From Pseudomonadota bacterium (GTDB lineage Bacteria > Pseudomonadota > Gammaproteobacteria > Burkholderiales > UBA9220), in assembly GCA_021845865.1 (NCBI GenBank), contig JAJZVC010000009.1, positions 8,218 to 72,217 of the forward strand: 64,000 nucleotides of DNA, in the 5' to 3' direction. Of this stretch, positions 2-36,270 are shown in pieces (within the stretch, counting starts at the first letter, position 1; every line of letters begins with the position of its first letter). The notes below the pieces were generated by a model. That model had not been told where the DNA came from, did no database searches, and was given only the letters and a program-made list of their open reading frames with translations. The translations under genes and the position numbers were made by a program.

Positions 2-613
2 TGGCAGTTGGCCCTGGGGTCGCTGCCGCGCCATTTCCGCCGCGCCCTGGGCGATTTTCCGTCCCATGGCGGTTATTTGCGCGCCGACCCGGCCAGGGCC
101 GCCGCCTGGGGAGAACGGCTGGGAAAGGCGGGAAAACTGCGCGTGGGCCTGAACTGGGCGGGCAACCCGGCATTCCGCCACGACCGCTGGCGCTCGGCCA
201 GCCTGGCGGACTTCGCGCCCTTGGGCGGCGTTCCTCATGTGGAGTGGTTCAACCTGCATCAGGGCGTGCGCAAGAGCGAATTGGCAATCGCGCCATTCCC
301 CCTCCACGACTACGCCGGCGAGTGGCGTGATTTGGATGACACCGCGGCGTTCATGGCGAATCTGGACCTGGTGATTTCCACCTGCACCGTGATTCCCCAC
401 CTGGCGGGGGCCCTTGGGAAACCGGCATGGGTTCTGGTCCATGGTCTGCCTTATTGGGCCTGGGGAGGCGAGGGGAAAGCCACGCCCTGGTACCCTTCTG
501 TCAGGGTGTTTCGTCAGCGGGGTTGGGGGGACTGGCCGGCGGTGATGGCGGAAGTGGCCGCTGCCCTGGGAGAGTTGGCCGTGGGGGGGGCGGAACTGGC
601 TCCTAAGGCATGA
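2..613 (+). CDS. 3'-terminal part of a glycosyltransferase family 9 (heptosyltransferase-like) domain protein; the 5' end lies outside the window
   Basis: Open frame from the window edge to the stop at 611-613. The translation (LNWAGNPAFRHDRWRS...DLVISTCTVIPHLAGALGKPAWVLV...PWYPSVRVFRQ) is colinear with the C-terminal half of the TPR-GT9 protein at 23130-24599 (LRWAGNPDNTQDRGRS...DLVISVDTAVLHLAGALGRPVWGLL...PWYPSARLFRQ). Confidence 0.6.
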   Translation, partial: WQLALGSLPRHFRRALGDFPSHGGYLRADPARAAAWGERLGKAGKLRVGLNWAGNPAFRHDRWRSASLADFAPLGGVPHVEWFNLHQGVRKSELAIAPFPLHDYAGEWRDLDDTAAFMANLDLVISTCTVIPHLAGALGKPAWVLVHGLPYWAWGGEGKATPWYPSVRVFRQRGWGDWPAVMAEVAAALGELAVGGAELAPKA

Positions 614-1727
614 AGAGTTTCAGGGCCTCCGAGACCTGGTCTACGTGTTCCAGAGGCATGGCAGGGTAGAGGGGTAAGGACAGGGTTTCTTCGCCCATCT
701 GCTCTGCTGACGGAAAACGTCCCTTCGGATAAGCGAGCGTGGTCTGAAAATGGCTGAGCAGATGGATGGCACGGTAATTCACAGTGGTTCCGATGCCCAG
801 GGACTGGAGATGGGCCACAAGGCTGTCGCGGTGTTCCGGGCTGACCCGGATGGGGAAGAGGTGGCGGGCATGCCGGCTATTGGGGCGTGTGGCGGGAAGG
901 GTGATACCAGGAATACCAGCCAATTGCTTACGATAACGCTCAGCGAGTTTTTCCCGCTTTGTCCGATTGATTTCCAGCCGTTGCATCTGGGGCAGGAGCA
1001 TGGCGGCCTGGATGTTGTCCATGTTGTATTTCCATCCAAGCATGGTCATGTCCCAGTGTTGATAGCCTTCCCGGTAACGATCGGAGGCGGTCTTGGTCAT
1101 GCCGTGCAGGCGAAGCTTCTTGAGGGTTTCGTGCAGGGCGCTGTCCCGGTACGCTAAAGCGCCGCCTTCCCCACAGGTCATGTTCTTGGTGGCGAAGAAG
1201 GAAAAGCAGGCGGCGTCGCCGAGTTGTCCCGGCTTCACGCCATCCCGTTCGCCTTCTATACAGTGAGCCGCATCCTCGATGAGCGCCAGGCCATGGCGGT
1301 CAGCGATGGCTCGCAGACGGCGCATGTCGCACATCAGGCCATAGAGGTGCACTGCCAGGATGGCGCGGGTGCGGGGCGTGATGGCGGCCTCAACCTGTTC
1401 GGCATCCAAGTTGCCGCTGTCCGGTTCCACGTCCACGAACACGGGGCGCGCGCCGGCTTCCTGAATGGCGGCTGCCGTGGCGATGAACGTCATGGGAGTG
1501 GTGATGACCTCGTCGCCGGGACCGATTCCCAATGCCAGCAGCACCATGTGCAGCGCCCCGGTGCAACTGGTTGTGCCCAGGGCATGAGGAACCCCCAGAT
1601 AGGCGGCGAATTCGTTCTCAAAGCGGGCCACCCATTCCCCGGTGGTCAGGATCGGGCTTTTGAATACTTCGGCAATGTTGGCAAGCTCGGCCTCGCCCAG
1701 GTCGTGCATGAAGAAAGGAACACGCAT
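603..1727 (-). CDS. DegT/DnrJ/EryC1/StrS-family PLP-dependent sugar aminotransferase
   Basis: ORF 603-1958 trimmed to ATG 1727-1725 (MRVPFFMHDLGEAEL...), which overlaps the stop of the upstream dehydratase by 1 nt (TGATG). Family hallmarks are GTTSCTGALHMVLLALGIGPGDEVITTPMTF and the PLP-lysine region SFFATKNMTCGEGGA. Confidence 0.85.
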   Translation of the reverse strand: MRVPFFMHDLGEAELANIAEVFKSPILTTGEWVARFENEFAAYLGVPHALGTTSCTGALHMVLLALGIGPGDEVITTPMTFIATAAAIQEAGARPVFVDVEPDSGNLDAEQVEAAITPRTRAILAVHLYGLMCDMRRLRAIADRHGLALIEDAAHCIEGERDGVKPGQLGDAACFSFFATKNMTCGEGGALAYRDSALHETLKKLRLHGMTKTASDRYREGYQHWDMTMLGWKYNMDNIQAAMLLPQMQRLEINRTKREKLAERYRKQLAGIPGITLPATRPNSRHARHLFPIRVSPEHRDSLVAHLQSLGIGTTVNYRAIHLLSHFQTTLAYPKGRFPSAEQMGEETLSLPLYPAMPLEHVDQVSEALKLFMP

Positions 1728-2755
1728 CAGTGCATTTCCCGCTTGCCCGAGGCGGTGATGATGGGGATGTGGCGCATCCAGCGCTGGTTTTCCCACCAAT
1801 CCGGGTTGTCGCGGTACCAGGCCACGGTTTTCGCCAGGCCATCGGCGAATGACGTTGCTGGCGTCCAATCCAGCAGGGCCGCGGCCTTGCTGGAATCCGC
1901 CGTGTGGCGGAAAACCTGGCCGGGGCGTTCGCCCACGGTCTGGATTTCGCTTTGGCAATGGGGGATGAGTTCCCGTATGGCGTGAGCGATTTCCAAAACG
2001 CTCATGTCCACGCCGCTGCCCAGGTTGATGACTTCGCCGCAGTATTTATCAATATCGCCGTGCAGCAGGCGGTCCAGCGCCTCGCAATGGTCCTGGACGA
2101 AGAGGAAATCCCGCCGGGCGGAGCCGTCGCCATGGACGGTAAGCGGCTCGCCGAGCAGGCAACTGGTGATGAAGCGAGGGATGACCTTTTCCAGGTGCTG
2201 GCGGGGGCCGTAATTGTTGAACGGCCTCACGATGACGGTCGGTATGCGGTAGGTCTGCCAATAGGAATAGACCAGCCGATCGGCGCCGCATTTCGCGGCG
2301 GCGTAGGGACTCATGGGATTCAGGGGGTGGCTCTCGTCCATGACGGGGGAAAGGGCGGAGCCGTACACCTCGGAGGTGGAGATGTGAATGAACAGCTGGA
2401 TGCGGTCCCGGTAGCGCAGCACGGAATTGGCGACCACCTGGGTGCCGAGGACATCGGTTTCGACGAACTGCCGGTTGTCGAAAATGGAACGGGTGACGTG
2501 GGATTCCGCCGCGAAGTGGACCACCATGTCGCTGCGGCTCACCAGCGAATCGACAATATCCGCATTGAGCACGTTGCCGTGCCAGAACTCGAAACGATTC
2601 GAGTCGAAGCCGCCTTCCGGAAGATTATGCACGCTGCCGGCATAGGTGAGGGCGTCAAGGACGATCAGCCGGTAATCGGGATATTTATCGTACAGGTGAT
2701 GAACGAAGTTGCTGCCAATGAATCCGGCGCCTCCGGTAATCAAGACGGTCTTCAC
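1727..2755 (-). CDS. NDP-hexose 4,6-dehydratase (RmlB-like extended SDR)
   Basis: 342-aa ORF with MKTVLITGGAGFIGSNF, HFAAESHVTRSI, STSEVYG, SPYAAAKCGADRL (YxxxK) and NNYGPRQHLEKVIP. The nucleotide carrier cannot be determined from sequence. Confidence 0.85.
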   Translation of the reverse strand: MKTVLITGGAGFIGSNFVHHLYDKYPDYRLIVLDALTYAGSVHNLPEGGFDSNRFEFWHGNVLNADIVDSLVSRSDMVVHFAAESHVTRSIFDNRQFVETDVLGTQVVANSVLRYRDRIQLFIHISTSEVYGSALSPVMDESHPLNPMSPYAAAKCGADRLVYSYWQTYRIPTVIVRPFNNYGPRQHLEKVIPRFITSCLLGEPLTVHGDGSARRDFLFVQDHCEALDRLLHGDIDKYCGEVINLGSGVDMSVLEIAHAIRELIPHCQSEIQTVGERPGQVFRHTADSSKAAALLDWTPATSFADGLAKTVAWYRDNPDWWENQRWMRHIPIITASGKREMH

Positions 2756-3462
2756 GCCCTTCCTTCCAGGATCGAAATGCTTGCGGGACCCATGTTCAGT
2801 ACCAGGTCGAGGGCCGACAGATAGGGCATGAAATCACCGTGCAGTTGCGGGTAAACAGGGTGGACATAGTCCTGCCATTCTAGCTTTACCCCCGCCTGGG
2901 CGAAAAGACCGGCATCCAGGTAATTGCGCGCCGCATCGCCGGTGAGATAGCAATCGGCCCCGAAATGGCGGCAGATGTTCAATAAGCGTTCGCTTTTATC
3001 CCCGGAGATACCCAGTTGCGACGAGCGCACGAGGGTGCGGCGCAGCCCCAGCCATTCGCACATCAGGGCCACAACCGCGATATCGAGGTCAACCAGCCGT
3101 TGCCAGGGTTGGTTCAAGAGCGCTTCCAGCGGTGGCAGATAGCGGTCGAGATAGGGGGATTTGGCGTAATTCTGGGCGATGGCGGCAATGTGCTTGCGCG
3201 CCCAGGGATGGGACGTGACGATTTCGGTATCCGCGATCCGTTGACCCTGGCAGCCGCTCGTTTTGACCGGGACGGTGAGCCAGAGTGGCCCCGTGGGGGA
3301 TTTGATGCGGTTCCGGTTGCGCCAGCCATGCTTGTCGAACTGGACATCATCGTAATAGACGAAGATGTCGCTGCGACGCATTTGGTCGAAGAAGCCCAGC
3401 CAGGGAAGATAGCCGGGCTGGAGAATGACCAGTCTAATGCTGGATGGGGACGTCTTTGACAA
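2752..3462 (-). CDS. WbqC-like family protein (copy 1)
   Basis: ORF 2752-3846 trimmed because its upstream part overlaps the acetyltransferase gene. TTG 3462-3460 lies 2 nt after that gene's stop. LVILQPGYLPWLGFFDQM...DDVQFDKHGWRNRNRIK...WLTVPV matches the paralog at 14857-15579. The start codon is uncertain. Confidence 0.7.
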   Translation of the reverse strand: MSKTSPSSIRLVILQPGYLPWLGFFDQMRRSDIFVYYDDVQFDKHGWRNRNRIKSPTGPLWLTVPVKTSGCQGQRIADTEIVTSHPWARKHIAAIAQNYAKSPYLDRYLPPLEALLNQPWQRLVDLDIAVVALMCEWLGLRRTLVRSSQLGISGDKSERLLNICRHFGADCYLTGDAARNYLDAGLFAQAGVKLEWQDYVHPVYPQLHGDFMPYLSALDLVLNMGPASISILEGRA

Positions 3463-3464
3463 GA

Positions 3465-4157
3465 TTACTTTACTGTTGCAGCGGATGTTTTGCGTGCTTC
3501 CGAGGAATGTTCTCGAAAGAATAATTCCCACGGCTGCCGGTCGGTTATCTTCTGAGGCTGGCAGTCTTGCCGCACGTAGTGGGTTGGCGGGATGTCTTTT
3601 ACAACGATGCTTCCCATGGCCACGATGCTCCAGTCGCCTACAGTAATGTCTGAACGAATGGCTGTATTTATGCCGAACATGCAACCGGCGCCTATGCGCG
3701 TATACCCGCCGACACTGACGCCTGGCGCAAAGAAGCAGGTGGCGCCGACAATACAGTCGTGGCTGATGGAGACGCCACTCCACAGAAGCGTTCCTTTGCC
3801 CAAGGAGACGTTCGGGCCGATGAAGGAGTGCGCGTTCACAAAGCAATTTCCAGCGATGGTGGCGGTTTTGGATATGGCTGCCTGCGGATGGTAAACATTA
3901 GCCAGGTTGAATCCATGGCTTGTAATTATCTCCATCCATTTTGCACGGGTCGTCGGTGTGCCGACGGCAACGAAGAACTCCGCTGAAGGCATGTCCTTGA
4001 ATGCCGCGAAGGGGCCAAGGACGGGGTGTCCCGATACCGATTGGCCAGCCAGTTCTCGCCGGTCATCGAGAAATGCCACTTCATATCCCGAAAGGGAAGC
4101 GGCTTCGGCTACTTCCCTGCCTAGGCTTTCCGCACCAAGAATTATCAGTTTTGTCAT
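3465..4157 (-). CDS. NeuD/PglD-type left-handed beta-helix sugar acetyltransferase (copy 1)
   Basis: 230-aa ORF with an N-terminal KLIILGAESLGREV Rossmann-like part and hexapeptide repeats (GKGTLLWSGVSISHDCIVGATCFFAPGVSVGGYTRIGAGCMFGINTAI). Confidence 0.8.
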   Translation of the reverse strand: MTKLIILGAESLGREVAEAASLSGYEVAFLDDRRELAGQSVSGHPVLGPFAAFKDMPSAEFFVAVGTPTTRAKWMEIITSHGFNLANVYHPQAAISKTATIAGNCFVNAHSFIGPNVSLGKGTLLWSGVSISHDCIVGATCFFAPGVSVGGYTRIGAGCMFGINTAIRSDITVGDWSIVAMGSIVVKDIPPTHYVRQDCQPQKITDRQPWELFFREHSSEARKTSAATVK

Positions 4158-4174: not shown

Positions 4175-5878
4175 TTACTCTTTGGTCAGGAGAATGTTGT
4201 CAATGGCGAGGACATCCAAGCCGCTGGTTACGAATGTTCTCAAAGCGTCTTCAGGAGAATTGACTATCGGTTCGCCATTGGTGTTAAAAGAGGTGTTAAT
4301 GAGGATTGGTGTGCCCGTATTTTCTTGAAATTTCATCAGTAATTCGTATAGCAAAGGTTCCCGCTCTTCCATAATGGTTTGGAGGCGGCCAGTCCCATCG
4401 GCATGAACGGCGCCGGGCGCTTTTTGGGCGGCGTTGGCGTGGAAGTGAAAGGCTTTTTCCATGAACAGTACCGGATCCGTATCCTGGGTTTGAAAGTAAC
4501 GTCCTACGGAACTGTAAGGAAGCATGGGCGCAAAAGGTCGAAATCCCTCGCGGTATTTAATGCTGGCGTTAAGTCTGTCCTTGATCTCCGCCTTGAGGGG
4601 ATTGGCAAGAATGGAGCGATGCCCGAGCGCACGCTGGCCAAATTCGGCTCGGCCTTGGAACCAACCCACAACGAACCCAGCAGCGATCAAGTCTGCTACG
4701 TCGGAGGCAATGTTGCCGCTTATCCGATGCTTCAAGCGATACTTTTCAATGATATCGCCAATTTCAGATTGTTCGAAGGCTGGCCCTACTGCCGGGACGA
4801 TGGAATTTGTTTCGATCTTTATGTTTCTTCTGATCGAGGCGTCAAGCGCGGCGCCAATAGCATTGCCACTATCGTCAGGGGCAAAACCTATGTAGGAACG
4901 CGAGAATGGCGTACGCGAGGTAATGGCGCCATTGAAGAGGCAATTCATGGCCACGCCACCGGCAAAGCACAGATGGGTGGAGTCAGTCAGCCGATGCGCT
5001 CGGGTAAGTAACCGGATAAGGGTGGTTTCCAGGAGTTGCTGCATGGCAGCAGCGAGGTCGAAATGGCATGGCAATAGAGGATCATCTGGCGATCTTGGCT
5101 TTCCCAGTAGGTCAACCAAGTGTTTTCCATACATTTCTGGACGGTCAAAATTGTAGAAATCGAAGAATTTGAGGTTGACCTCGTAGCGGCCATCGTCTTC
5201 CAGTTGGATCAGTTTCTTAATTTGGGGGGCGTTGGCGGGGTTGCCATAAGCGGCCATTCCCATAATTTTCCATTCATCCGAGAAGGGGCGGAAACCGAGG
5301 AACTGAGTGATGGCCGCATAGACGCACCCGATGGAGTTAGGAAATACCTCCGATTCCAGCAAGGTAAGTTCCCCCCCTTTGCCATGGAAAATAGAGGTCG
5401 TTTTTTGCTCACTCCAGCCATCTACGATGACGACCGCTGAATCCTCGAATCCCGAGGCATGAAATGCCAGGCGTGCATGCGCCAGGTGGTGGTCAACATA
5501 CTCAATGACCACCTGGCGGCCGTTGCTGGCGGTAAATTTCTGCTCTGTCAGATGGGGGAGCAGCAGGCCAGGAAGCAGATGGTTGGGAACGGACGTCAGC
5601 CATTCGCCGGGATATCTCATCCAGTCCGAGAAACCGGGGCGATACTTGAGGGCAATGTTTTCACCGGGATTCCACGCAATGGAAAAACAATCCACGCGGT
5701 CCATGCCTATTTTTGCCACGTCAAGGCAGTAGCTTAGAGCCTGATGGGGAAAAGAACGGTCATGCTTGATGCGGCTGAAGCGCTCTTCAGGCACGGCGGC
5801 AATCAGTTGACCATCGTGCATGAGGGCCGCGGAACTGATCGGCCCTGACATATGGATTCCTAGGACGTAGGTTGACAA
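4175..5878 (-). CDS. NodU/CmcH-family carbamoyltransferase
   Basis: 567-aa ORF. The N-terminus MSTYVLGIHMSGPISSAALMHDGQLIAAVPEERFSRIKHD and the overall length are typical of this family. The gene is visibly AT-richer than its neighbours. Confidence 0.85.
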   Translation of the reverse strand: MSTYVLGIHMSGPISSAALMHDGQLIAAVPEERFSRIKHDRSFPHQALSYCLDVAKIGMDRVDCFSIAWNPGENIALKYRPGFSDWMRYPGEWLTSVPNHLLPGLLLPHLTEQKFTASNGRQVVIEYVDHHLAHARLAFHASGFEDSAVVIVDGWSEQKTTSIFHGKGGELTLLESEVFPNSIGCVYAAITQFLGFRPFSDEWKIMGMAAYGNPANAPQIKKLIQLEDDGRYEVNLKFFDFYNFDRPEMYGKHLVDLLGKPRSPDDPLLPCHFDLAAAMQQLLETTLIRLLTRAHRLTDSTHLCFAGGVAMNCLFNGAITSRTPFSRSYIGFAPDDSGNAIGAALDASIRRNIKIETNSIVPAVGPAFEQSEIGDIIEKYRLKHRISGNIASDVADLIAAGFVVGWFQGRAEFGQRALGHRSILANPLKAEIKDRLNASIKYREGFRPFAPMLPYSSVGRYFQTQDTDPVLFMEKAFHFHANAAQKAPGAVHADGTGRLQTIMEEREPLLYELLMKFQENTGTPILINTSFNTNGEPIVNSPEDALRTFVTSGLDVLAIDNILLTKE

Positions 5879-5910
5879 TTGAATTTCCCTCTAAGGAGCC
5901 TGTCTCGTCT

Positions 5911-7785
5911 TTATTCCATGATTTTTTCGAGAGGGGCATGGCGTTCCCACCATTTCTGGAACATCAGCAGGTTCCAGAGCCGGGGGCCATGGTTGGCGCG
6001 GCCTTCAACGTGTTCCTCCATCAGTTGCTGGACGGTTTCTGGCCGGAGCAAGCCGTGCAGGGCCAGGCGCTCGGGTGTCAGGGTGGCCTTGAGCGTTGGC
6101 TGAAGCGCGTTTCGCAGCCATCCATCCACCGGCAGCACGAATCCTTCCTTGGGCCGGTTGATGATGTTGTCGGGCAACAGATCGCGCACAGCTTCCTTGA
6201 GAATATGCTTGCTCCGTCCTGTGCGGATTTTCATCGAACCCGGCAGGCGCGCGGCGAACTCCATCAGGCGGTAATCCAGGAAGGGCGGCCTCACCTCCAC
6301 CGAATGGGCCATGGAGAGCCGGTCCACGAAGGCTAGTACCTGATCCGGCAGCAGGGTGGCGAAGTCGCAAGCCAACGCGCGGTTGAGCGGGTCGGGCGTG
6401 GCGCATCCATCATAGATGTGCCGCAGGAGGCTTTCGCTGCTTTCCCCCGCGCAAAGGGCCAGCATCTTGCTGCTCAGCAGGCTCCGCTTGCCTTCGTCCG
6501 TCCACAGCGTGAGGCTGGCGCGGCGCGCGGCTTCGTCGCCGTATTTTAGCAGGGAGCGCAGATAGTCCGGCTGGTCCTGGTAGGGACGCAGCAAGTCCCA
6601 TTCAGCCTCAGTCAGGGTATCCAGTTTTTCGGCCAGGGAGGGGAAGTGGTGCAGGGGCTGCGCCAGGCGATGGGCCAGATAGCTGCCGAACAGTTCGTCC
6701 GCGCCATCGCCGGAAAGGGCGACCTTGACATGCCGGGCAATCAGACTTGTGACGAAATAGGTTGAGGTCACGCCGGAAAAGGGTTCGTCGAAGGCATCAA
6801 CCACCGCGTCGAGATTGTCCACGATATCCTGCGCCGTCAGGACGTGCTCGTGATGGTCGGTGCCGTAAAGACTGGCCACTTGCCGGGCGCAGTCCCGATC
6901 CGCCTGCTTGTGCGGGATGTCGTCCTCATAGACGAGAGAAAAGGTCTGCACGCGCTGGCCGCCAAGACGGCTCATCAGGGCAACGACGCTGGAACTGTCC
7001 AGCCCGCCGGAGAGGTATGCGCCGAAGGGAAAATCGGCGCGCATGCGCAGGCGCACGCTGTCCTCCAGCAGCTCCCGTATCCGTGCGGCCGCCGTGGCGT
7101 CGTCCATTTGCGGGTCTTCGTTGAAACGCAGGGACCACCACGTATCGCGCCGCAAGGCGCCCTGCTCGAAGATAACCCGTTCCCCCGGCCTTAATTGTTC
7201 GATGCCCGCAAAGGCGCTCCAGGGCGAGGGGATGTTCTTGAAGCTGAAGTAATGGTAGAGGGCGCGGTAGTCCGGCGTGCGTGGGGTGTCCGGATGGGCG
7301 AGGAGGGATTTGATCTCCGAGGCAAACAGCAAGCGGCCATTGGCGCGGCAGAAGTACAACGGCTTGATACCAGCGCGGTCCCTCGCCAGGAGCAGTTTCT
7401 TGCGGCGCTCGTCCCAAAGGGCGATGGCGAACATGCCGTTGAGATGATGGAGGAAATCGTCGCCGTGGGCTTCATACAAATGCACCAGGGTTTCGGTGTC
7501 GGAGTGGTGGCTGGAAAAGCGGTGTCCTTCGGTCTCAAGCCGCGCGCGCAGCTCGGGGTGGTTGTAGATTTCGCCATTGAAAATCACGGCGATACTGCCG
7601 TCTTCGTTGAATACCGGCTGCTGGCCGCTTTGGGGGTCGATGATGGCGAGCCGTCGCATGCCGAGGGAGATGCCGGGGCTTTCCCAATAGCCCGCATCAT
7701 CCGGGCCGCGATGGACAACGGCCTGGGTCATTCGCCTCAGGGCGGCGCCATTCGCCGGCCCCGTGAAGCCGCATATGCCGCACAT
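5911..7785 (-). CDS. Asparagine synthetase B-family glutamine-dependent amidotransferase
   Basis: 624-aa ORF starting MCGICGF (Cys2 nucleophile of class II amidotransferases) with the PP-loop YLSGGLDSSSVVALM. Its start overlaps the upstream stop by 1 nt. Confidence 0.9.
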   Translation of the reverse strand: MCGICGFTGPANGAALRRMTQAVVHRGPDDAGYWESPGISLGMRRLAIIDPQSGQQPVFNEDGSIAVIFNGEIYNHPELRARLETEGHRFSSHHSDTETLVHLYEAHGDDFLHHLNGMFAIALWDERRKKLLLARDRAGIKPLYFCRANGRLLFASEIKSLLAHPDTPRTPDYRALYHYFSFKNIPSPWSAFAGIEQLRPGERVIFEQGALRRDTWWSLRFNEDPQMDDATAAARIRELLEDSVRLRMRADFPFGAYLSGGLDSSSVVALMSRLGGQRVQTFSLVYEDDIPHKQADRDCARQVASLYGTDHHEHVLTAQDIVDNLDAVVDAFDEPFSGVTSTYFVTSLIARHVKVALSGDGADELFGSYLAHRLAQPLHHFPSLAEKLDTLTEAEWDLLRPYQDQPDYLRSLLKYGDEAARRASLTLWTDEGKRSLLSSKMLALCAGESSESLLRHIYDGCATPDPLNRALACDFATLLPDQVLAFVDRLSMAHSVEVRPPFLDYRLMEFAARLPGSMKIRTGRSKHILKEAVRDLLPDNIINRPKEGFVLPVDGWLRNALQPTLKATLTPERLALHGLLRPETVQQLMEEHVEGRANHGPRLWNLLMFQKWWERHAPLEKIME

Positions 7786-8840
7786 CAGCCGGATTCCGTC
7801 GCGGATGACTGGAAATCGTCATTTTCCGTCAGGCGCAGCAAGGTTATGGCGCGTTGCGCTTCAGCGTTGTTGACAACTTTCCAATAGTTGTGTTGCCATG
7901 AGCGGTACTGCCAATCCGGGCAGGTGGCGCAAAGGGGCAGGTCGCGTCCCTGGCCCGCTAGGTGCTTTTCCCGGTAGAGGCGAAAGCCCTCCCCATGCCA
8001 GATTTCCGCGATGGACTGATGATTAACGTTACCCATGCTAGTGTTGGCGGCGATATCATAGCCACAGACCATGACGTTGCCCCGGCTGTCGATGTTCAGG
8101 CGCTCGAAGATGAAAGGGCAGGGCACGGCTTCGGTATCGATGTAGGGGGTGGCGTCCGCCGAGCGTTCGGCATCCAGTCGGGTGTTGCTGCCCCAGGTGA
8201 GAAATTTGCGCCCGATGAAATTGTCCACGCCGATCTCCTCGCGCCAGAAGGCTTCCACGGCGTCAATGTCCACGCCCTTCTGGTTGACGCCGGAGGCGAC
8301 GATTTTCGACGGGCTGTTCATCGCGTTGCGCAGGCGGAGCATGCGGCGGACATTGTCCACCAGCTTGTGCCATTTCAGGCCCTTGCGCACCACCGAATAA
8401 GTGGCCTCGTCCCTGGCATCAACGGAAAATTCGATCATGTCCACCCCCGCGCGCAACAGGGCAAGGGTGGTCTTTTCCGTGAACTTGGAGCCGTTGGTGA
8501 TCAAGCCGATGCGGCAGCCCGCTTCCTTGGCGTACACCAATAGTTCTTTCGCCTTGGGATGGAGCATGGGCTCGCCACCCCCGGAGATGCGCAGATAGGC
8601 GCCATGCTGTCCCGCCTCGTCGGCGATTTTCCGGAAAAGCGCTTCCGGCATGAAGGGGGCGTCACGGTAATCATCGCGGATGTTGGACTGCGTATAGGGG
8701 CAGTGGGGGCACTTCGCGTTGCAGGGATAGACGAAGGAAAGTACCAGCATCATGGGAAAACGGGCCGCCTCGGGGCGAAGGCCATAATTCGTCTCCCTGG
8801 AGGTGTCCTGCGCTTCTGCTGGCTGTTTGCTCATGGACAT
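7785..8840 (-). CDS. Radical SAM enzyme with C-terminal SPASM/twitch-like Cys cluster (paralog A)
   Basis: 351-aa ORF with YPCNAKCPHCPY (CxxxCxxC), GGGEPMLHP, and C-terminal VPCPF...GNVMVCGYD...LCATCPDW. Confidence 0.85.
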   Translation of the reverse strand: MSMSKQPAEAQDTSRETNYGLRPEAARFPMMLVLSFVYPCNAKCPHCPYTQSNIRDDYRDAPFMPEALFRKIADEAGQHGAYLRISGGGEPMLHPKAKELLVYAKEAGCRIGLITNGSKFTEKTTLALLRAGVDMIEFSVDARDEATYSVVRKGLKWHKLVDNVRRMLRLRNAMNSPSKIVASGVNQKGVDIDAVEAFWREEIGVDNFIGRKFLTWGSNTRLDAERSADATPYIDTEAVPCPFIFERLNIDSRGNVMVCGYDIAANTSMGNVNHQSIAEIWHGEGFRLYREKHLAGQGRDLPLCATCPDWQYRSWQHNYWKVVNNAEAQRAITLLRLTENDDFQSSATESG

Positions 8841-9832
8841 TCCGCAGTGACGGGTTCGCCCTGGTGATACCAGAAGGGGCGGGTTCCAGGCAATTTTTCC
8901 TCATCGTAGCTGGCTCCGGCAGTTTGCCAGTCCCGGCATCCCTGACAGATGGACGGCAAGGCATTCCAGCGGTGTTCCCGGTGGGGAGTGCGGACAGCCG
9001 CCCCTAGGCGTTGCCAGGCTTCCTTGACGGAGAGCGTGTCACCGATGGCGCCGACGCTGAAGAGTCCTTCGTAATCCACGGCGCAGGTCACGACCTTGCC
9101 ATCCTGGTGGATGGCCATGGTGTTGTTGCCCCAGGGACAGGCGATGCGGAAATCGGAATCGTGGTCAATGTTGGGCGCATGCACCACGCCGCCCCATTCC
9201 AGTTGCGGGCGTACCTTGACCTCGGCACCACGCTCCTGCCAGTGGCGGCGATATTCCTCCACCTCGTGGCCGTTGATGTCCTGAAGCACGGAGAACTGGC
9301 AGATGATGGCGGGGTAGGCCTGTCCCCTCTGGGCTTTCCGGTTCAGCAGATTTTCGACCTGGGCGTAAATCTTTTCCCTCTTTCCCCCTACCCGGACTTT
9401 CTCGTAGGTTTCGGTGCTGAAGCCGTCAATGGAAAGAATGAAGCGCTTGAGTGGGGACTCCAGTACCCGCTCGATGTTGTCCCAGCGATCGAGCAGCATG
9501 GCGTTGGAGTTGAGCACCAGGTTGTTGCAGCCCACCTTGGCGGCGTAGTCGAGCCGGTTCCACAGTTCGTTGTCCTTGGCGAGAATCAGCGCTTCGCCGT
9601 AGAACGTCGGCCAGAGCTCGGTGCCGGGCGACTCGCGCCCCACTTCCTCGACGATCCGGTTCCACAGCTGCCGTTCCATGTGCTTTTTGGGGCGCACCAG
9701 GTTGCGGTGGTTGCAGTGGATGCACTTCTGGTTGCAATAGCTGGTGTTTTCCACCACTAGCTGAGGCGGAAAGGGGTGTTCCACGAGTTGGGACTCAATG
9801 GCAAGAAGTTTGTCTTGATGGGCTCTATCCAT
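8831..9832 (-). CDS. Radical SAM enzyme with C-terminal SPASM/twitch-like Cys cluster (paralog B)
   Basis: 333-aa ORF with SYCNQKCIHCNH and C-terminal IACPW...GKVVTCAVD...ICQGCRDW. It overlaps the downstream paralog by 10 nt. Confidence 0.85.
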   Translation of the reverse strand: MDRAHQDKLLAIESQLVEHPFPPQLVVENTSYCNQKCIHCNHRNLVRPKKHMERQLWNRIVEEVGRESPGTELWPTFYGEALILAKDNELWNRLDYAAKVGCNNLVLNSNAMLLDRWDNIERVLESPLKRFILSIDGFSTETYEKVRVGGKREKIYAQVENLLNRKAQRGQAYPAIICQFSVLQDINGHEVEEYRRHWQERGAEVKVRPQLEWGGVVHAPNIDHDSDFRIACPWGNNTMAIHQDGKVVTCAVDYEGLFSVGAIGDTLSVKEAWQRLGAAVRTPHREHRWNALPSICQGCRDWQTAGASYDEEKLPGTRPFWYHQGEPVTAECP

Positions 9833-11816
9833 GGGGTAGCGCGCTCATTTTGCTAGTGGTGATTTCCTCGATATGGACTAGTAAGGTACGTGCCATTTCT
9901 GCGATGTCCATAACGAATGCCTCAACAAACTCCTGTCCTGCATGGCCTACGGCATCCCTGAAAGGTTTATCGTCAATGAGGCGTAACGCCATCTTCGTGT
10001 ATTCCTGATTATTAGTGGCGCAAAGGAAAAGCGTTTCCCCATTTTCGGCGGTGTATATGTGTTGGGCGCGCTCTCGTTTGTCAGGGGTGCCTACCTGCCC
10101 ATTTAGCAAGGGTAAGATCACCATGGGAACACCGCTTTCCATCGCCTCGGGACTCAGGTGGAATACTGTCGGCTTGCCTGCGGCCATGCACTCGAATACC
10201 GTGATCCCGCCGCCGAAGGGGAAAGTGTCGAGGCAAACATCCAGTACCTGGGCGTAAAGCCGAGTGTCGATCCAGCCCACGAAAAAGCATCGATCCGCTA
10301 CGCCGGCCCTTTCAAAACATTCCTGGATTCGCGGCAAACGGGATTGGCCGCTCCACAGAAAACCTGTATCGGGACGTGCCTGTAGAATATCGGCTACGGC
10401 GTCGAGATATTGAGGGTTGTCCAGTTTTTCCACGCGGCCCATGCAGCCCAGCAGGGTTTTCACTGGAAACTGCTGTCGAATTTTTCTTGCTTGATTGTTC
10501 AGGTCGGCGTCATAAAGATCGCCTACTGCACCATGAACGCACCGCCAGTTGCGGCTGCCGATACGTTTGAATTTTTCCAGGGTGCCGAGGGCGAAATAGC
10601 CGTCGATGTCCTCGAGTTCGACACTGTGGTATTTCATGGACCACCAGATTTGCGCCGGGGCCAAGCGAAGACCGAAGGCAAAGGACATATGTGCGATGTT
10701 GGTTGCCCACAGGATGGCGGCTGTGCCGTCGTTTGCCAAACGTCGCCGCAGTTCCAGCAACAACTGGTAGGCCATGCCGCGCAGGTGGGGACACTCGTCG
10801 CTCAGGGCGACGATGCGGACACCTGTGTCGAGGAAGGAGGAAAGGGCGCGTTGGTCCACATCGCTCAATACATATACCGATACGGCGCGGCTGGTTTGGT
10901 CCATGCTGCGCAGAGCGTCCAAAAGCACCCGGTTTGGCCCGAGGGAATCAAGATGATGGACGACAAAAGCCACGCTGGCGGTATTGGGATTGGCCGGTGA
11001 AGGTGTTGGAGGAAGCCGGTTACGCAGTTGGCGTCCTGCCCCGTTCATGAGGGGGGCGACAGTCCGGTAATGGCGGGCGTAGTGTTCCTCGGTTTCGGTC
11101 TGATGGACATAGCGCAGATCAAGCTGTAATTCGAGCCAAAGGGCGAGATCGAACCATTCCCGTTCCAGAGCTTGTTGCAGCCAGGGGAGGACAAGGGTCT
11201 CCACCGTTGTCCGATTGTCCGTTGCCGGGGTATTGAGGGACAGGCCCACCAAGTCCATGAGGTAGCGGATAGCGGCGTGGGCCGTCGCCTCGTTGGAACT
11301 ATTGGTGATCACGTTCCGGCTGTGGAGCTGTTCGAGCAAGCTGGAGCGGAGAAGGGCGGCCTGCGGTCGGGCATGCAGCAGTTTCAAATAGTTCTCGAAA
11401 TAGACGGAGGGTTCCGTCAGGGCTTGAGGGGCGATGGTGGCCACTTGAGCCAAATTCAGCAACATCTCCCCCGTATCAGCCGCATGCCCTCTCTGCTTCA
11501 GGAAAAGTTTGAACCCTAATTCAAAAGCGGAAATTGCCTCGTTGACGTGCCCTAATCCTGTGAGAACTTGGCCGAGATTGCAACAATAGACGGGGTCTTC
11601 CGGGGAAAACGTTACTGCTTGGACGGCATAAGGCAATGCCTGGCTCGCAAAGCCTAGCCGACTAAGTATGACCGCCTTGAGGTTGAGGGCGGGCGGTGCG
11701 TCTGGTGCTATGGCCAGCAGAGGGTCTAATAGCTCATTGGCTTCGCTGAGTCGTTCCTGACGGAAATATCCCAGGGCACGGTTGAACAGGTCGTTGGCTC
11801 GTTCTTGCGGGTGCAT
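9825..11816 (-). CDS. TPR-repeat protein with GT41/OGT-like C-terminal glycosyltransferase region
   Basis: 663-aa ORF with N-terminal TPR-like repeats (ANDLFNRALGYFRQERLSEANELLDPLLAIAPDAPPALNLKAVILSRLG). The C-terminal DVCLDTFPFGGGITVFECMAAGKPTV resembles DLFLDTLPYNAGTTASDALWAGVPVL of 61847-63829. Confidence 0.65.
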   Translation of the reverse strand: MHPQERANDLFNRALGYFRQERLSEANELLDPLLAIAPDAPPALNLKAVILSRLGFASQALPYAVQAVTFSPEDPVYCCNLGQVLTGLGHVNEAISAFELGFKLFLKQRGHAADTGEMLLNLAQVATIAPQALTEPSVYFENYLKLLHARPQAALLRSSLLEQLHSRNVITNSSNEATAHAAIRYLMDLVGLSLNTPATDNRTTVETLVLPWLQQALEREWFDLALWLELQLDLRYVHQTETEEHYARHYRTVAPLMNGAGRQLRNRLPPTPSPANPNTASVAFVVHHLDSLGPNRVLLDALRSMDQTSRAVSVYVLSDVDQRALSSFLDTGVRIVALSDECPHLRGMAYQLLLELRRRLANDGTAAILWATNIAHMSFAFGLRLAPAQIWWSMKYHSVELEDIDGYFALGTLEKFKRIGSRNWRCVHGAVGDLYDADLNNQARKIRQQFPVKTLLGCMGRVEKLDNPQYLDAVADILQARPDTGFLWSGQSRLPRIQECFERAGVADRCFFVGWIDTRLYAQVLDVCLDTFPFGGGITVFECMAAGKPTVFHLSPEAMESGVPMVILPLLNGQVGTPDKRERAQHIYTAENGETLFLCATNNQEYTKMALRLIDDKPFRDAVGHAGQEFVEAFVMDIAEMARTLLVHIEEITTSKMSALPHG

Positions 11817-11822
11817 GCGGGG

Positions 11823-12761
11823 TTACAGGGGTTTGCGCAGAACAGCGGTGAGTATGAAGGTGCGCAAATCCTCTTCTGGCAGGTCACGGAACTCCTCGCG
11901 GACACGCTGCCGGATGTCAGGTGGAGTAGGGAAGTGGGGGGTGCATTGCCAACTCAGGATTTGGTAACCGCTTTTCTCGAACCATGCGCGCCAGTGGGAA
12001 ACCCGCAGGCCGTTGATCCACAAATCGGGGCGAACCGTGCTGGCGGGACCGTATTCCCCGTCCTCCATGAAAGTCCAGGCGGTGAACTGGTCGGGGTTCT
12101 CGTAATGCCGGTGGTCATCCAGGCCGATTCTGTGCTGGACGATGCCTCCCGGTTTGAGCAGTTTATAGTGCCAGGCCAGCGCGTCTTCCGGTTCGTGGAC
12201 ATGCTCCAGGACGGCATTCGAGAACATGAAGTCGATCTGCCCCTCGGGCAAAAGGGTACGAGCCGCATCCAGGCCCGCATAGGCGAAGCGGGCGGCCTGG
12301 GTGGTGAGCAGGGCGTTCCAGTCGCCTTTTTGCAGGGCGTCAAGGGGGAGCGCATAGGCCCGTTGGCGGATGGCTTCAGGGTGGGTGCCCAGCAGGACGT
12401 AGCGCTCCGGAAAGGCGATGACGTGAAGCAGGAGTTCAAAGCAAGCCTGGGCCGCTTGTTCGGTGTTGTGGAGATGTTCGGAAACATCCACGGCCAAGGC
12501 GGTTTCGGCGCCATTGAGGTAGAGAATCAAGCCATGGGCCAGGGGCTGGAAAGAGCCAGCCCCCATTTCCAGCACAGTACGGGGATGCTCATGAAGCATG
12601 GCCGTCCAGGCGGGGGAAATATCCTGAATAATGCGCGAGGCCCGTTGTGGATTGTAGGACCATTGATCCGGCCAGCGGGTCTCCAGAAGACGGCGGGAGT
12701 GCCATGAGAGGTCGTTGAGTTGCACCCAGTTCAGGTCGGCGAGATCGGGCATAAAGGCCAT
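11823..12761 (-). CDS. Class I SAM-dependent methyltransferase
   Basis: 312-aa ORF with motif I VLEMGAGSF and DFMFSNAVLEHVHEPEDALAWHYKLLKPGGIV. It is the first gene of the minus-strand string. Confidence 0.7.
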   Translation of the reverse strand: MAFMPDLADLNWVQLNDLSWHSRRLLETRWPDQWSYNPQRASRIIQDISPAWTAMLHEHPRTVLEMGAGSFQPLAHGLILYLNGAETALAVDVSEHLHNTEQAAQACFELLLHVIAFPERYVLLGTHPEAIRQRAYALPLDALQKGDWNALLTTQAARFAYAGLDAARTLLPEGQIDFMFSNAVLEHVHEPEDALAWHYKLLKPGGIVQHRIGLDDHRHYENPDQFTAWTFMEDGEYGPASTVRPDLWINGLRVSHWRAWFEKSGYQILSWQCTPHFPTPPDIRQRVREEFRDLPEEDLRTFILTAVLRKPL

Positions 12762-14867: not shown

Positions 14868-15579
14868 AACCGTTGCCATCCTCCAGTCCTGCTACATCCC
14901 GTGGAAGGGGTTTTTCGACATCATCCGGCGGGTGGACGAATTCATCCTCTACGACGAGGTGCAGTTCACCCGCCGCGACTGGCGCAACCGCAACCTGATC
15001 AAGACCGCGGAGGGACTCAAGTGGCTGACCATCCCGGTCATGAACAAGGGGCACTACCACGCGCCTATTCGCGACATGCTGGTCGCCGACCCGGCCTGGG
15101 CCGGCCAGCACTGGCAGTCACTGCTTCATGCCTACCGCAAGGCAGCCTGCTTTGACGAGGTGGCACCCTTCGTCGAGGAACTGTACCGGGGTTGCACGGA
15201 AACCCGGCTGAGCGAGGTAAACCACCGTTTTATCGCGGCCCTGTGCGCATATTTGGAGATCACCACCCCTCTATCCTGGTCCTGGGACTACCCGGTGCAG
15301 AGCGATGACCGTACCCAGCGCTTGGTGGAACTGTGCCGAGCAGCGGGAGCGACCCGCTACCTGTCCGGCCCCTCCGCCAAGGCCTACATGGACTTGGAGC
15401 GTTTCCATCGGGCTGGCATCGAGGTGGAGTACATGGATTATTCGGGCTACCCGGCTTATCGCCAGCTCCATGGCGCGTTCGAGCACGGCGTGTCGGTGCT
15501 CGATCTGCTATTCAACGAAGGAAAGGAGGCGCGGCGCTTCCTCGACCGCTCTCCGCTGGAGGAGAAACGCCATGGCTGA
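14857..15579 (+). CDS. WbqC-like family protein (copy 2)
   Basis: ORF 14626-15579 trimmed to GTG 14857 (VADKTVAILQSCYIPWKGFFD), which overlaps the upstream gene by 11 nt. Contains EVQFTRRDWRNRNLIKT...WLTIPV. Confidence 0.7.
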   Translation: MADKTVAILQSCYIPWKGFFDIIRRVDEFILYDEVQFTRRDWRNRNLIKTAEGLKWLTIPVMNKGHYHAPIRDMLVADPAWAGQHWQSLLHAYRKAACFDEVAPFVEELYRGCTETRLSEVNHRFIAALCAYLEITTPLSWSWDYPVQSDDRTQRLVELCRAAGATRYLSGPSAKAYMDLERFHRAGIEVEYMDYSGYPAYRQLHGAFEHGVSVLDLLFNEGKEARRFLDRSPLEEKRHG

Positions 15580-16207
15580 CCCCTCGCTCTTCGCCCAGGT
15601 GTCCGACTACTACACAGGCAAGCTGCGCGCCCACGGCGAGACGGCCCAGGGAGTGGACTGGAAGGATGAGGTCTCCCAGGCGCTGCGTTTCGAACAACTT
15701 GTCAAACTTCTCCCGCTGGAAGGGGATTATCTTGTCCTGGATTATGGTTGCGGTTACGGGGCGTTGCTGGACTACCTAAGGGATAAAGGTTACGGTTGCC
15801 GCTACCTGGGGCTGGACGTGAGCCCGGAGATGGTGGCGGTCGCGGCGAAGCGCCATGCTGCCGATGCTCGGGCAAAGTTCCGCCAGGGAGTGGGGATTCC
15901 CGCCGGGGTGGATTACATTCTGTGCAGCGGCGTGTTCAACGTTCGCCTGGGGCGGGGGGACGAGGAATGGCAGGCCTACCTCATGGAAACCCTGCGGGCT
16001 TTCGCCGCCGCTGCTCGTCGTGGTTTTGCATTTAACCTTCTCACCACCTATGCCGATAAGGACAAAATGCGCCCCGATCTCCATTACGCCGATCCCTGTC
16101 GCCTGTTCGACTGGGCCAAGCGGGAGGTTTCGCGCCACGTGGCTTTGCTGCACGACTATGATTTATACGAATTCACTCTCATCGTCCGCAAAATTTTAGA
16201 GGGGTAG
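15572..16207 (+). CDS. Class I SAM-dependent methyltransferase
   Basis: ORF 15305-16207 trimmed to ATG 15572 (MADPSLFAQV), an 8-nt overlap with the WbqC stop. Motif I is VLDYGCGYGALLDYL. Confidence 0.8.
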   Translation: MADPSLFAQVSDYYTGKLRAHGETAQGVDWKDEVSQALRFEQLVKLLPLEGDYLVLDYGCGYGALLDYLRDKGYGCRYLGLDVSPEMVAVAAKRHAADARAKFRQGVGIPAGVDYILCSGVFNVRLGRGDEEWQAYLMETLRAFAAAARRGFAFNLLTTYADKDKMRPDLHYADPCRLFDWAKREVSRHVALLHDYDLYEFTLIVRKILEG

Positions 16208-16209
16208 CC

Positions 16210-16872: not shown

Positions 16873-16876
16873 GCCC

Positions 16877-17878: not shown

Positions 17879-17882
17879 TGCC

Positions 17883-18698: not shown

Positions 18699-18705
18699 AG
18701 CGGTT

Positions 18706-23129: not shown

Positions 23130-25599
<2,470 letters not shown>

Positions 25600-25601
25600 A
25601 G

Positions 25602-36243: not shown

Positions 36244-36270
36244 TAAAGTTTCCCTTGGGGCGGACGATAA
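36244..36270 (+). promoter_or_regulatory. Sigma-28 (FliA) promoter of fliC
   Basis: TAAAGTTT (36244-36251), an 11-nt spacer, then GACGATAA (36263-36270). The enterobacterial FliA consensus is TAAAGTTT-N11-GCCGATAA, so 15 of 16 positions match. It lies 89 nt upstream of the fliC ATG. Confidence 0.75.

Follow-up and report, generated by a model that had tools for sequence, protein, structure and literature searches.

Introduction

AsnB-like amidotransferases are encoded in a number of O-antigen gene clusters. Enzymes of this kind include WbpS of Pseudomonas aeruginosa O6, Francisella tularensis WbtH and the product of the GalNAcAN gene of E. coli O121 and S. dysenteriae 7. A second group, the class III carbamoyltransferases of the NodU/CmcH/TobZ type, includes NovN, TobZ and NodU, all of which carbamoylate sugar hydroxyls. 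WapO (PA5005), the carbamoyltransferase of the P. aeruginosa core lipopolysaccharide (LPS) gene cluster, links the class to LPS carbamoylation. In this work we have analyzed two adjacent genes that encode one member of each group, an AsnB-family glutamine-dependent amidotransferase of 624 aa and a carbamoyltransferase (CT) of 567 aa. They lie in a 64 kb stretch of bacterial DNA from contig JAJZVC010000009.1 (the window, by which we mean the whole stretch), on which there is also an island of flagellar and glycosylation genes. A first-pass annotation of the sequence had predicted that the pair adds an amide nitrogen and a carbamoyl group to a flagellar glycan.

The precedents differ in how far they have been established. 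The UDP-GalNAcAN pathway is listed as proposed and not based on experimental data (PMC7685785). The acceptor of a NodU-like enzyme can be an amine, since StdF is an N-carbamoyltransferase that converts lysine to homocitrulline (PMC13174530). The attachment of sugars to flagellin is exemplified by FlmG, the pseudaminyl-transferase of Caulobacter flagellin, whose tetratricopeptide repeat (TPR) domain binds the flagellin (PMC7591256).

We find that each of the two genes belongs to a clade that is tied to one conserved cassette of sugar-biosynthesis genes. We put at roughly 0.55 the probability that both are working tailoring enzymes of this portable cassette, acting in the pathway proposed below. 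Because both clades are tied to the cassette, its 4-amino sugar is the most likely molecule for the two enzymes to tailor.

Results

A Ten-Gene Operon Contains Both Enzymes

The cassette genes of the window form a ten-gene operon on the minus strand, in which the overlap or gap at each junction is at most 32 nt. Its genes are as follows:

11823-12761, minus strand: S-adenosylmethionine (SAM)-dependent methyltransferase, 312 aa, first gene of the operon (Methyltransf_23 and Methyltransf_11)
9825-11816, minus strand: TPR protein with a GT-B glycosyltransferase (GT) fold, 663 aa (TPR repeats N-terminal, Glyco_trans_1_4 C-terminal)
8831-9832, minus strand: first radical SAM/SPASM protein (rSAM1), 333 aa (Radical_SAM and SPASM)
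7785-8840, minus strand: second radical SAM/SPASM protein (rSAM2), 351 aa (Radical_SAM and SPASM)
5911-7785, minus strand: AsnB-family glutamine-dependent amidotransferase, 624 aa (GATase_7 and Asn_synthase)
4175-5878, minus strand: NodU/CmcH/TobZ-class (class III) carbamoyltransferase, CT, 567 aa (Carbam_trans_N and Carbam_trans_C)
3465-4157, minus strand: NeuD/PglD/VioB-family sugar N-acetyltransferase (PglD-like acetyltransferase), 230 aa (TIGR03570, PglD_N and Hexapep)
2752-3462, minus strand: WbqC-family protein, 236 aa from a TTG at 3462 (Pfam WbqC)
1727-2755, minus strand: RmlB-like nucleoside diphosphate (NDP)-sugar short-chain dehydrogenase/reductase (SDR), 342 aa (TIGR01181 below cut-off; 4,6-dehydratase matches in the PDB)
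603-1727, minus strand: DegT/DnrJ/EryC1 C4-type sugar aminotransferase (DegT), 374 aa (Pfam DegT)

The first-pass annotation had located the AsnB-family and CT genes 32 nt apart, in one string with the radical SAM pair and the dehydratase and aminotransferase genes. Its coordinates are exact, the families are those matched in Pfam, and the string is the operon listed above. The spacer of 32 nt (5879-5910) separates the AsnB gene from that of the CT, while on its other side the AsnB gene is translationally coupled to rSAM2 by an overlap of 1 nt.

Two of the start codons in the public records appear to be too late. The CT is annotated there from ATG 5851, giving 558 aa. We prefer the 567 aa reading from TTG 5878, because the ATG drops the clade-conserved N terminus VLGIH and because a Shine-Dalgarno sequence (GAGGG) is found 8 nt 5′ of the TTG. 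The public call for WbqC begins at ATG 3381, losing the family-conserved N terminus, and TTG 3462 fits better. The public call for DegT is likewise 374 aa.

Base composition divides the operon. The AsnB, rSAM1, rSAM2, WbqC, SDR and DegT genes have GC contents at the third codon position (GC3) of 0.72-0.79. The CT gene is richer in AT (GC 0.525, GC3 0.585), as had been noticed earlier, but it shares this property with the PglD-like acetyltransferase gene (GC 0.545, GC3 0.593). Just 5′ of the methyltransferase gene there is a sigma-70-like sequence, TGGTCA-18-TATAAT, at 12811-12782 on the minus strand; this is a consensus match only.

A Conserved Cassette Accompanies the Amidotransferase Subfamily

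The AsnB homolog begins MCGICGF, and its Pfam domains are GATase_7 (E = 1.3e-47) and Asn_synthase (E = 7.5e-97). It clears the cut-off of the broad model TIGR01536 (475 bits against 267), but misses both the orthodox AsnB equivalog NF006949 (305.6 bits, cut-off 499) and its top-scoring NCBIfam model, TIGR03108 for the XrtA/PEP-CTERM amidotransferase (530.4 bits, cut-off 816.9). The PseA/WbpG/WbuX PP-loop family is absent from its nine NCBIfam matches, which agrees with the earlier remark that PseA belongs to a different family.

Most of the glutaminase and synthetase motifs are conserved throughout the subfamily. Cys1 immediately follows the initiator Met in all 92 sequences with a full N terminus. 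The glutamine pocket, consisting of RRLxI[IV]D (here RRLAIID), NGE (NGEIYNH) and SDTE, aligns with that of E. coli AsnB, and its key residues are present in 121 of 121 sequences. In human asparagine synthetase (ASNS) the pocket comprises R48, N74-G75-E76 and D96, and the catalytic lysine is K466, equivalent to K449 of AS-B (PMC6748925). The same conservation (121/121) is seen for the Lys of RPKEGF and for the PP-loop SGG[LVI]DS, which here is SGGLDSS, at residue 259.

The closest solved relative is 7ylz (263 bits), which was deposited as a hydroxyamidotransferase and not as an asparagine synthetase; E. coli AsnB (1ct9) scores 177 bits. On the acceptor side residues 364-388 of E. coli AsnB are unaligned, and ~110 residues stand there in the window protein. 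From the sequence, the features of the AsnB homolog fit a glutamine-dependent enzyme whose product is a primary amide and whose acceptor is not aspartate.

Relatives of this protein form a smooth series from 91% down to ~57% identity, including those of Methylobacter, Rhodocyclaceae, Magnetospirillum, Magnetococcales and Methylocapsa. We inspected their gene neighborhoods (labeled L0xx or L1xx) and used tblastn to score the presence of cassette genes at 93 loci, and subsequently at further ones. Loci with an AsnB of 36-42% identity, found by a contig scan with AsnB that was dominated by the generic pattern FNGEIYNH, served as the negative control set.

The result was clear. Wherever the AsnB homolog is at least 45% identical, WbqC, the SDR and the two rSAM/SPASM genes were all found less than or equal to 10 kb away, and DegT is usually there too. 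This set (L005-L017, L038 and L108) represents about ten independent lineages, its carriers being metagenome-assembled genomes (MAGs) of Betaproteobacteria, Alphaproteobacteria, Magnetospirillum, Rhodocyclaceae, Thalassobaculaceae, Desulfobacterales and Rifleibacterium, together with some further contigs. In the control set, tblastn detected no cassette genes at 73 of the 75 loci. The two exceptions were L044, with a WbqC of 38% identity and weak rSAM matches, and L063, with faint DegT and WbqC.

The conserved cassette comprises two rSAM/SPASM proteins, AsnB, an N-acyltransferase, WbqC, the RmlB-like SDR and DegT. Its common order is rSAM-rSAM-AsnB-GNAT-WbqC-SDR-DegT (GNAT, GCN5-related N-acetyltransferase), with overlapping stop and start codons. 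rSAM2 was found in every cassette locus, and rSAM1 co-occurs with the AsnB subfamily. Cultured carriers of related genes include Methylocapsa acidiphila and M. polymorpha, in which the AsnB homolog is 65% identical, and Methylogaea oryzae, with a WbqC of 65% identity.

The cassette is portable, occurring in both flagellar and O-antigen/LPS-type loci. In L009 it is located 5 kb from a flagellin gene, beside rml-type genes. In the Magnetospirillum MAG locus L011 it is accompanied by Wzy, flippase and GT4 genes, and in the Rhodocyclaceae MAG locus L108 by WaaA, a heptosyltransferase and a flippase. Outside the window, none of the cassette loci has a close relative of the pseudaminic acid (Pse) synthase PseI nearby. 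Nor is there a UDP-sugar 6-dehydrogenase in the Pfam-annotated cassette loci L005, L009, L011, L013, L094 and L108; the only locus with flanking copies is L095, where there are two UDP-sugar dehydrogenase genes. The AsnB homolog is genetically locked to the conserved cassette, and not to Pse or uronic-acid genes.

A second AsnB-like gene, of 649 aa, was observed beside GT4 genes in the cassette-bearing polysaccharide clusters of L011 (1493-3442) and L108 (18667-20616). A single cluster can thus hold AsnB-like genes of two distinct clades.

The Carbamoyltransferase Recurs with the Cassette

The CT matches Carbam_trans_N over residues 15-345 (E = 7e-49) and Carbam_trans_C over residues 395-566 (E = 3e-62). 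It misses the NodU equivalog NF041651 (138 bits, cut-off 1000). Its matches in the PDB are 7xb6 (300 bits), NovN (285), GdmN (277) and TobZ (252), and it aligns end to end with 7xb6, NovN and GdmN. H130, H134, D153 and D336 align with the Fe ligands H133, H137, D156 and D333 of GdmN, and are present in 121 of 121 clade members. The YrdC-domain motifs REGFRPFAP and NTSFN..GEPIV are kept relative to GdmN and NovN. A further motif at the N terminus, LGIH[HQN]SGPIxSAAL, is specific to the clade.

Judged by these motifs, the catalytic machinery of both the amidotransferase and the CT appears mostly intact, and we propose that the CT would form carbamoyl-AMP from ATP and carbamoyl phosphate. The general expectation of an amide nitrogen and a carbamoyl group on a glycan holds up, and both families had been assigned correctly.

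The relatives of the CT fall sharply in identity, from 78% to 57%. We considered whether this drop and the foreign base composition might mark the gene as a stray insertion. This was ruled out, since homologs of 50-56% identity sit in the cassette in other phyla. They adjoin cassette genes in L094/L096 (Portnoybacteria), L095, L097, L098 and L101/L104. The core of rSAM, WbqC and SDR is held by L094-L097, and extends to DegT in L096 and L097 (metagenome loci with a CT of at least 50% identity). L098, L101 and L104 are short contigs, on which AsnB, rSAM and DegT are present. The gene order in the Portnoybacteria MAG (L094), which belongs to the candidate phyla radiation (CPR), is GT2-AsnB-methyltransferase-CT-rSAM-rSAM-WbqC-SDR-DegT, and that in the MAG of L095 is GT-CT-rSAM-WbqC-SDR. 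We saw one exception, L109, with an isolated CT beside transposases. CTs of 34-45% identity show no linkage to the cassette. Thus CTs of this clade repeatedly accompany the cassette, in phyla that are far apart and with the CPR among the carriers.

The CT of the window is of mosaic origin. In the lineage of the window and in its 78% relative the CT is paired with the PglD-like acetyltransferase, and together they fill the slot occupied by the GNAT in the CT-less cassettes L009, L011, L013 and L108. The shared low GC3 and the common slot fit a replacement of the usual GNAT by a low-GC segment carrying both genes. A different arrangement is found in L099 (536-3735), where a member of the CT clade and a C-terminal formyltransferase domain (Formyl_trans_N) make up one fusion protein of 837 aa, with a WbqC gene 3 nt downstream.

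A related-looking but different island is present in a cultured bacterium. On the Azospirillum oryzae KACC 14407 plasmid (NZ_CP054615.1, 223762-249459; L110) a CT of 45% identity is followed by a GNAT, and around it are methyltransferases, a TPR protein and four radical SAM genes.

The Remaining Cassette Enzymes and a Proposed Pathway

The SDR scores 327 bits on TIGR01181, below the cut-off of 365. Its best PDB matches are dTDP-glucose 4,6-dehydratases such as 6bi4 and 1r66, with 249 bits compared with 128 bits for UXS. The motif STDEVYG reads STSEVYG, with Ser in place of the catalytic Asp, in 14 of 14 cassette orthologs from distant phyla, and the enzyme may not be a classical RmlB. The Ser-Glu pair also occurs in GDP-mannose 4,6-dehydratase (GMD) and in the UDP-glucuronate decarboxylases UXS and ArnA. 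We considered taking the Asp-to-Ser change as proof of a uronate decarboxylase, but dropped this as over-interpretation given the same pair in GMD. The cassette sugar probably derives from a 4-keto, probably 6-deoxy, intermediate, and we keep a uronate-derived sugar as the alternative.

DegT matches its Pfam family with E = 6e-125, but all of its NCBIfam scores are below cut-off (PseC 330 bits, ArnB 309, WecE 246). The best matches of rSAM2 among PDB sequences, which are weak, are the sugar-acting enzymes BlsE, BtrN and DesII (E = 8e-9 to 4e-5); rSAM1 had no match among PDB sequences. The PglD-like acetyltransferase scores 182 bits on TIGR03570, above the cut-off of 161.

The WbqC protein matches its Pfam family with E = 1.3e-78. 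This is a large family, of more than 17,000 clusters at 50% identity, and the literature searched contains only remarks that its function is unknown. A search of PDB sequences gave no match. Its AlphaFold2 model has a pLDDT of 91, and comparison of the model with the PDB using Foldseek gave nothing below E = 1e-3, and only faint HUP-class matches. WbqC is fused to a GNAT, in either order, in six of the ten long WbqC proteins examined, and to a methyltransferase in one (the fused proteins are P0409, P0424, P0453, P0476, P0494, P0543 and P0524). The GNAT fusions indicate that WbqC and GNAT act together on one molecule. WbqC may be linked to the N-acetylglycyl-Qui4N of E. coli O121. That strain carries an amide-linked N-acetylglycine (PMC7685785).

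There is a second amino-sugar module in the window, at 14884-20744 on the plus strand, where a second WbqC protein again accompanies a DegT enzyme and an acetyltransferase. The module encodes WbqC2, a methyltransferase, a NeuD/VioB-family acetyltransferase (TIGR03570, 177 bits), a second methyltransferase, a PhyH-type dioxygenase, a 331-aa open reading frame (ORF) and a WecE-type dTDP-4-amino-4,6-dideoxygalactose transaminase (577 bits, cut-off 375).

We propose the following pathway. The RmlB-like SDR and DegT would generate an NDP-4-amino-4-deoxy hexose, most likely the 4,6-dideoxy sugar. The N-acyltransferase (PglD/VioB-like here and GNAT elsewhere), WbqC and the rSAM pair would then build or remodel an N-linked or C-linked substituent. 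The AsnB-like enzyme would hydrolyze glutamine at Cys1 and adenylate a carboxylate at the PP-loop, giving a primary amide; the carboxylate would be located on the cassette sugar or on its N-linked side arm. We give slightly better than even odds to a carboxylate that is part of the side arm or derived from radical SAM chemistry. The CT, having converted ATP and carbamoyl phosphate to carbamoyl-AMP, would transfer the carbamoyl group, probably to a sugar hydroxyl. The FlmG-like TPR-glycosyltransferase of the operon could finally load the finished sugar onto flagellin.

The Flagellar Island

The flagellar and pseudaminic acid genes of the window lie on the plus strand:

24607-30196, plus strand: pseudaminic acid pathway, with PseB, PseC, PseF, PseG, a formyltransferase-like gene and PseI (five Pse equivalogs above cut-off)
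36359-37879, plus strand: flagellin gene fliC, 506 aa (Flagellin_N and Flagellin_C)

The Pse pathway is situated 17 kb from the cassette. The flagellin gene is preceded by a sigma-28-type promoter at 36244-36270 on the plus strand, TAAAGTTT-N11-GACGATAA, having one mismatch to the consensus, and is followed in the island by FliD and FliK (fliD, fliK). It is 28 kb from the cassette, and the intervening stretch is filled with sugar-modification genes. The island contains three TPR-glycosyltransferases, and there is also a TPR/GT41 gene at 61847-63829 on the plus strand. In L009 and L017, homologs of the TPR-glycosyltransferase (32-35% identical) adjoin the cassette. The ORFs that were scanned along the 64 kb gave no match to a flippase, polymerase, chain-length or initiating-transferase family, nor to the family of UDP-sugar 6-dehydrogenases (UDPG_MGDP_dh). 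In this organism the cassette sugar is probably attached to the flagellar filament.

Some further features of the island were observed. The Pse operon has no GNAT-type PseH; in the expected slot is a formyltransferase-like gene of 216 aa (28497-29147, plus strand; GC 0.518, GC3 0.548), which hints at an N-formyl and not an N-acetyl derivative of pseudaminic acid. Directly 5′ of the flagellin gene is a 1587-aa protein (31471-36234, plus strand) with a methyltransferase at residues ~470-620, a GT2 domain at ~990-1190 and large unassigned regions. Several large TPR/GT41 (O-GlcNAc-transferase-like) genes stand on both sides of the island, including that at 61847-63829 on the plus strand, which lies beyond housekeeping genes, and those of the left flank (L001, 7885-14323).

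Discussion

The proposal that both genes encode tailoring enzymes of the cassette must be set against a number of observations that weigh against it. In the amidotransferase the motif SGEGSDE reads SGDGADE, with Asp in 121 of 121 subfamily sequences; the Glu of this motif in human ASNS (E364) contacts the aspartate α-carboxylate via water (PMC6748925). In GdmN the general base H27 is essential, deprotonating the acceptor hydroxyl, and H27N is inactive. The residue of the CT that aligns with it is Pro13, and the only nearby His is His9, four residues upstream, which is found in 77 of 121 clade members. There is no obvious carboxylate-forming enzyme in the cassette, and we cannot name a carboxylate intermediate. 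The order of steps is conjectural, because WbqC and both rSAM enzymes are without known functions. As regards the target, no match to a sigma-28 promoter was found upstream of the cassette operon, fliC alone having one. The case for flagellin rests on context only, because the cassette serves O-antigen-type clusters elsewhere. The source organism is an uncultured Sulfuricellaceae-like betaproteobacterium represented by a MAG; proteins that cluster with its PlsX and GlnD at 90% identity or above are assigned to Sulfuricellaceae.

What does the CT carbamoylate? Over the 121 clade members the column aligned with GdmN H27 contains P, I, Y or W, and never His. Because of this deviation we regard the clade as a distinct uncharacterized branch of the class III carbamoyltransferases. 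The strongest competitor to a hydroxyl acceptor is an N-directed enzyme, carbamoylating an amino group, either on the sugar itself or on an aminoacyl side arm, to give a ureido group, as an alternative to N-acetylation by the GNAT. The missing His keeps this option open, as does the precedent of StdF, the NodU-like enzyme that modifies the lysine ε-amine. The distribution of genes points the same way, since a GNAT is found in five CT-less lineages and is absent from the four CT-bearing lineages other than that of the window. However, this either-or pattern is weak because four cassette lineages have neither GNAT nor CT. Moreover, the CT of the window lineage is accompanied by a PglD/VioB-family N-acetyltransferase, and that of another lineage is fused to a sugar N-formyltransferase-like domain, suggesting that the amine is acylated by another enzyme and that the CT acts elsewhere. 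Because the CT in both of these cases is paired with an enzyme dedicated to acylating the sugar amine, we favor an O-carbamate, which is the probable product, over a urea, which we consider a minority possibility. The enzyme family named at the outset for the O-carbamoyl group stands, but O is no more than the likelier position of the carbamoyl group, given the Pro at the position of the catalytic His and the known N-carbamoylation of lysine by a NodU-like enzyme.

The reading closest to the original prediction is that the amidotransferase is of the WbpS/WbtH type, amidating a uronic acid or the C1 carboxylate of Pse, while the CT O-carbamoylates the same flagellar glycan. In a refined form, the amidation of an NDP-hexuronate made by housekeeping enzymes would be followed by oxidation of C4, carried out by the SDR, and by transamination, so that a 4-amino-4-deoxy-hexuronamide results. 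AsnB-like genes do occur in the clusters of GalNAcAN-containing O-antigens (WbpS, WbtH), a complete Pse pathway lies 17 kb from the cassette, the two UDP-sugar dehydrogenase genes flank the cassette of L095, and the score of DegT on ArnB is close to that on PseC. The Ser-Glu pair of the SDR, which also marks UXS and ArnA, could be read in this way too, but the same pair occurs in a true 4,6-dehydratase, GMD, and the SDR scores 249 bits against dTDP-glucose 4,6-dehydratases and 128 against UXS. Furthermore, the UDP-sugar 6-dehydrogenase was undetected both in the window ORFs scanned and in the six annotated cassette loci, and outside the window the cassette has no close PseI relative. We therefore consider this reading in either form to be unlikely, and the same grade applies to an NDP-hexuronate or Pse carboxylate as the group that is amidated. 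The predicted uronic or nonulosonic acid acceptor is thus not borne out.

The destination of the sugar is a separate question. It might be delivered to LPS or another polysaccharide here, its nearness to the flagellar genes being incidental. This would agree with the polysaccharide genes beside the cassette in L011 (Wzy, flippase, GT4) and L108 (WaaA, heptosyltransferase, flippase), with an operon promoter that is sigma-70-like and not sigma-28, and with the 28 kb between the cassette and fliC. Yet that interval is filled with sugar-modification genes, the operon itself encodes an FlmG-like TPR-glycosyltransferase, the cassette of L009 is near flagellin, and the window ORFs scanned include none of the flippase, polymerase, chain-length and initiating-transferase families. 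An LPS target is doubtful, somewhat more so than a uronamide. The flagellar setting of the first-pass annotation is real, therefore, but the cassette is not exclusively flagellar.

Finally, it is highly improbable that the 624-aa gene is merely the asparagine synthetase B of the cell, for although it passes the TIGR01536 cut-off and automatic annotation would name it asparagine synthase, it misses the AsnB equivalog (306 against 499 bits), has ~110 residues in place of the unaligned acceptor-side stretch, is strictly linked to the cassette in about ten lineages and is coupled to rSAM2 by the 1 nt overlap.

The tailoring of the cassette sugar by the two enzymes remains the interpretation that we prefer. 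The chemistry proposed is ordinary for the two known superfamilies. What is new is that one particular AsnB clade and one particular CT clade are tightly linked to an uncharacterized cassette of rSAM, WbqC and amino-sugar genes, that this cassette is deployed in flagellar and O-antigen loci across distant phyla, and that the CT clade deviates where the catalytic His is expected. In the open-access papers searched, a set from which most subscription journals are missing, we found neither decoration reported for a flagellin glycan, nor a NodU-type CT or AsnB-type enzyme acting on one; to this extent the earlier remark of being aware of no such report agrees with the literature. The "carbamoyl" proteins in papers on the flagellins of C. 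difficile and Dickeya are ATP-grasp "carbamoyl-phosphate-synthase-like" proteins, and not NodU-type CTs.

If the proposal is correct, the operon represents an unstudied but widespread way in which bacteria make a decorated amino sugar for their surfaces, for flagella as well as O-antigens. It would define a cassette-specific AsnB clade and a CT clade without the canonical catalytic histidine, and would give the large WbqC family its first link to a function. Carbamoyl and carboxamide groups change the charge and hydrogen bonding of the filament surface, and therefore could affect recognition by phage and the immune system. Variants of the cassette, with the CT present or absent and with GNAT or PglD-like acetyltransferase, offer a natural experiment for the assignment of steps by mass spectrometry. 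Going further, we would suggest tentatively, with less conviction than we attach to the tailoring roles themselves, that the cassette, with an optional AsnB and a His-shifted CT, makes an unprecedented rSAM-remodeled 4-amino sugar carrying a carboxamide together with a carbamate or urea, displayed on flagellin or O-antigen from Proteobacteria to the CPR, and that WbqC is a new type of enzyme.

How does the locus compare with the systems already described? The amidotransferase shares with the WbpS/WbtH type its superfamily, the long (~620 aa) AsnB-like form, a location in surface-glycan clusters and the proposed use of glutamine and ATP to convert a carboxylate into a primary amide. Compared by description only, those clusters carry a uronic-acid pathway, whereas here AsnB is tied to rSAM/SPASM, WbqC and amino-sugar genes. 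With 7ylz and E. coli AsnB (1ct9) it has in common the N-terminal nucleophile glutaminase with Cys1, the pocket of Arg, Asn-Gly-Glu and Asp, the SGGxDS motif and the catalytic Lys. It differs from both in the SGDGADE motif and in the ~110 residues between the two aligned synthetase blocks.

The CT has the Kae1-like plus YrdC-like build of TobZ, NovN, GdmN, NodU and WapO, with the H-x3-H/D/D Fe ligands and the YrdC motifs. At 567 aa it lacks the C-terminal dimerization domain of GdmN and NovN (680 aa); relative to GdmN it has Pro for H27, and the N-terminal motif LGIH[HQN]SGPIxSAAL is its own. StdF belongs to the same class and shows that amines can be acceptors, but it is a fusion with a peptidase and its substrate is a RiPP peptide, made on the ribosome and modified after translation, and there is no peptide context at the CT of the window (PMC13174530).

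In its sugar-forming enzymes the operon resembles the trios that make dTDP-viosamine and bacillosamine (RmlB/PglF, VioA/PglE and VioB/PglD), having an SDR, a DegT enzyme and a NeuD/PglD/VioB-family acetyltransferase together. Its SDR differs in the Ser, and WbqC, the two rSAM/SPASM proteins, AsnB and the CT are outside those known pathways. The 663-aa protein of the operon resembles FlmG in its N-terminal TPR and C-terminal GT-B domains and in its similar size, a comparison of architecture only (PMC7591256). The donor sugar in this operon would be a different one.

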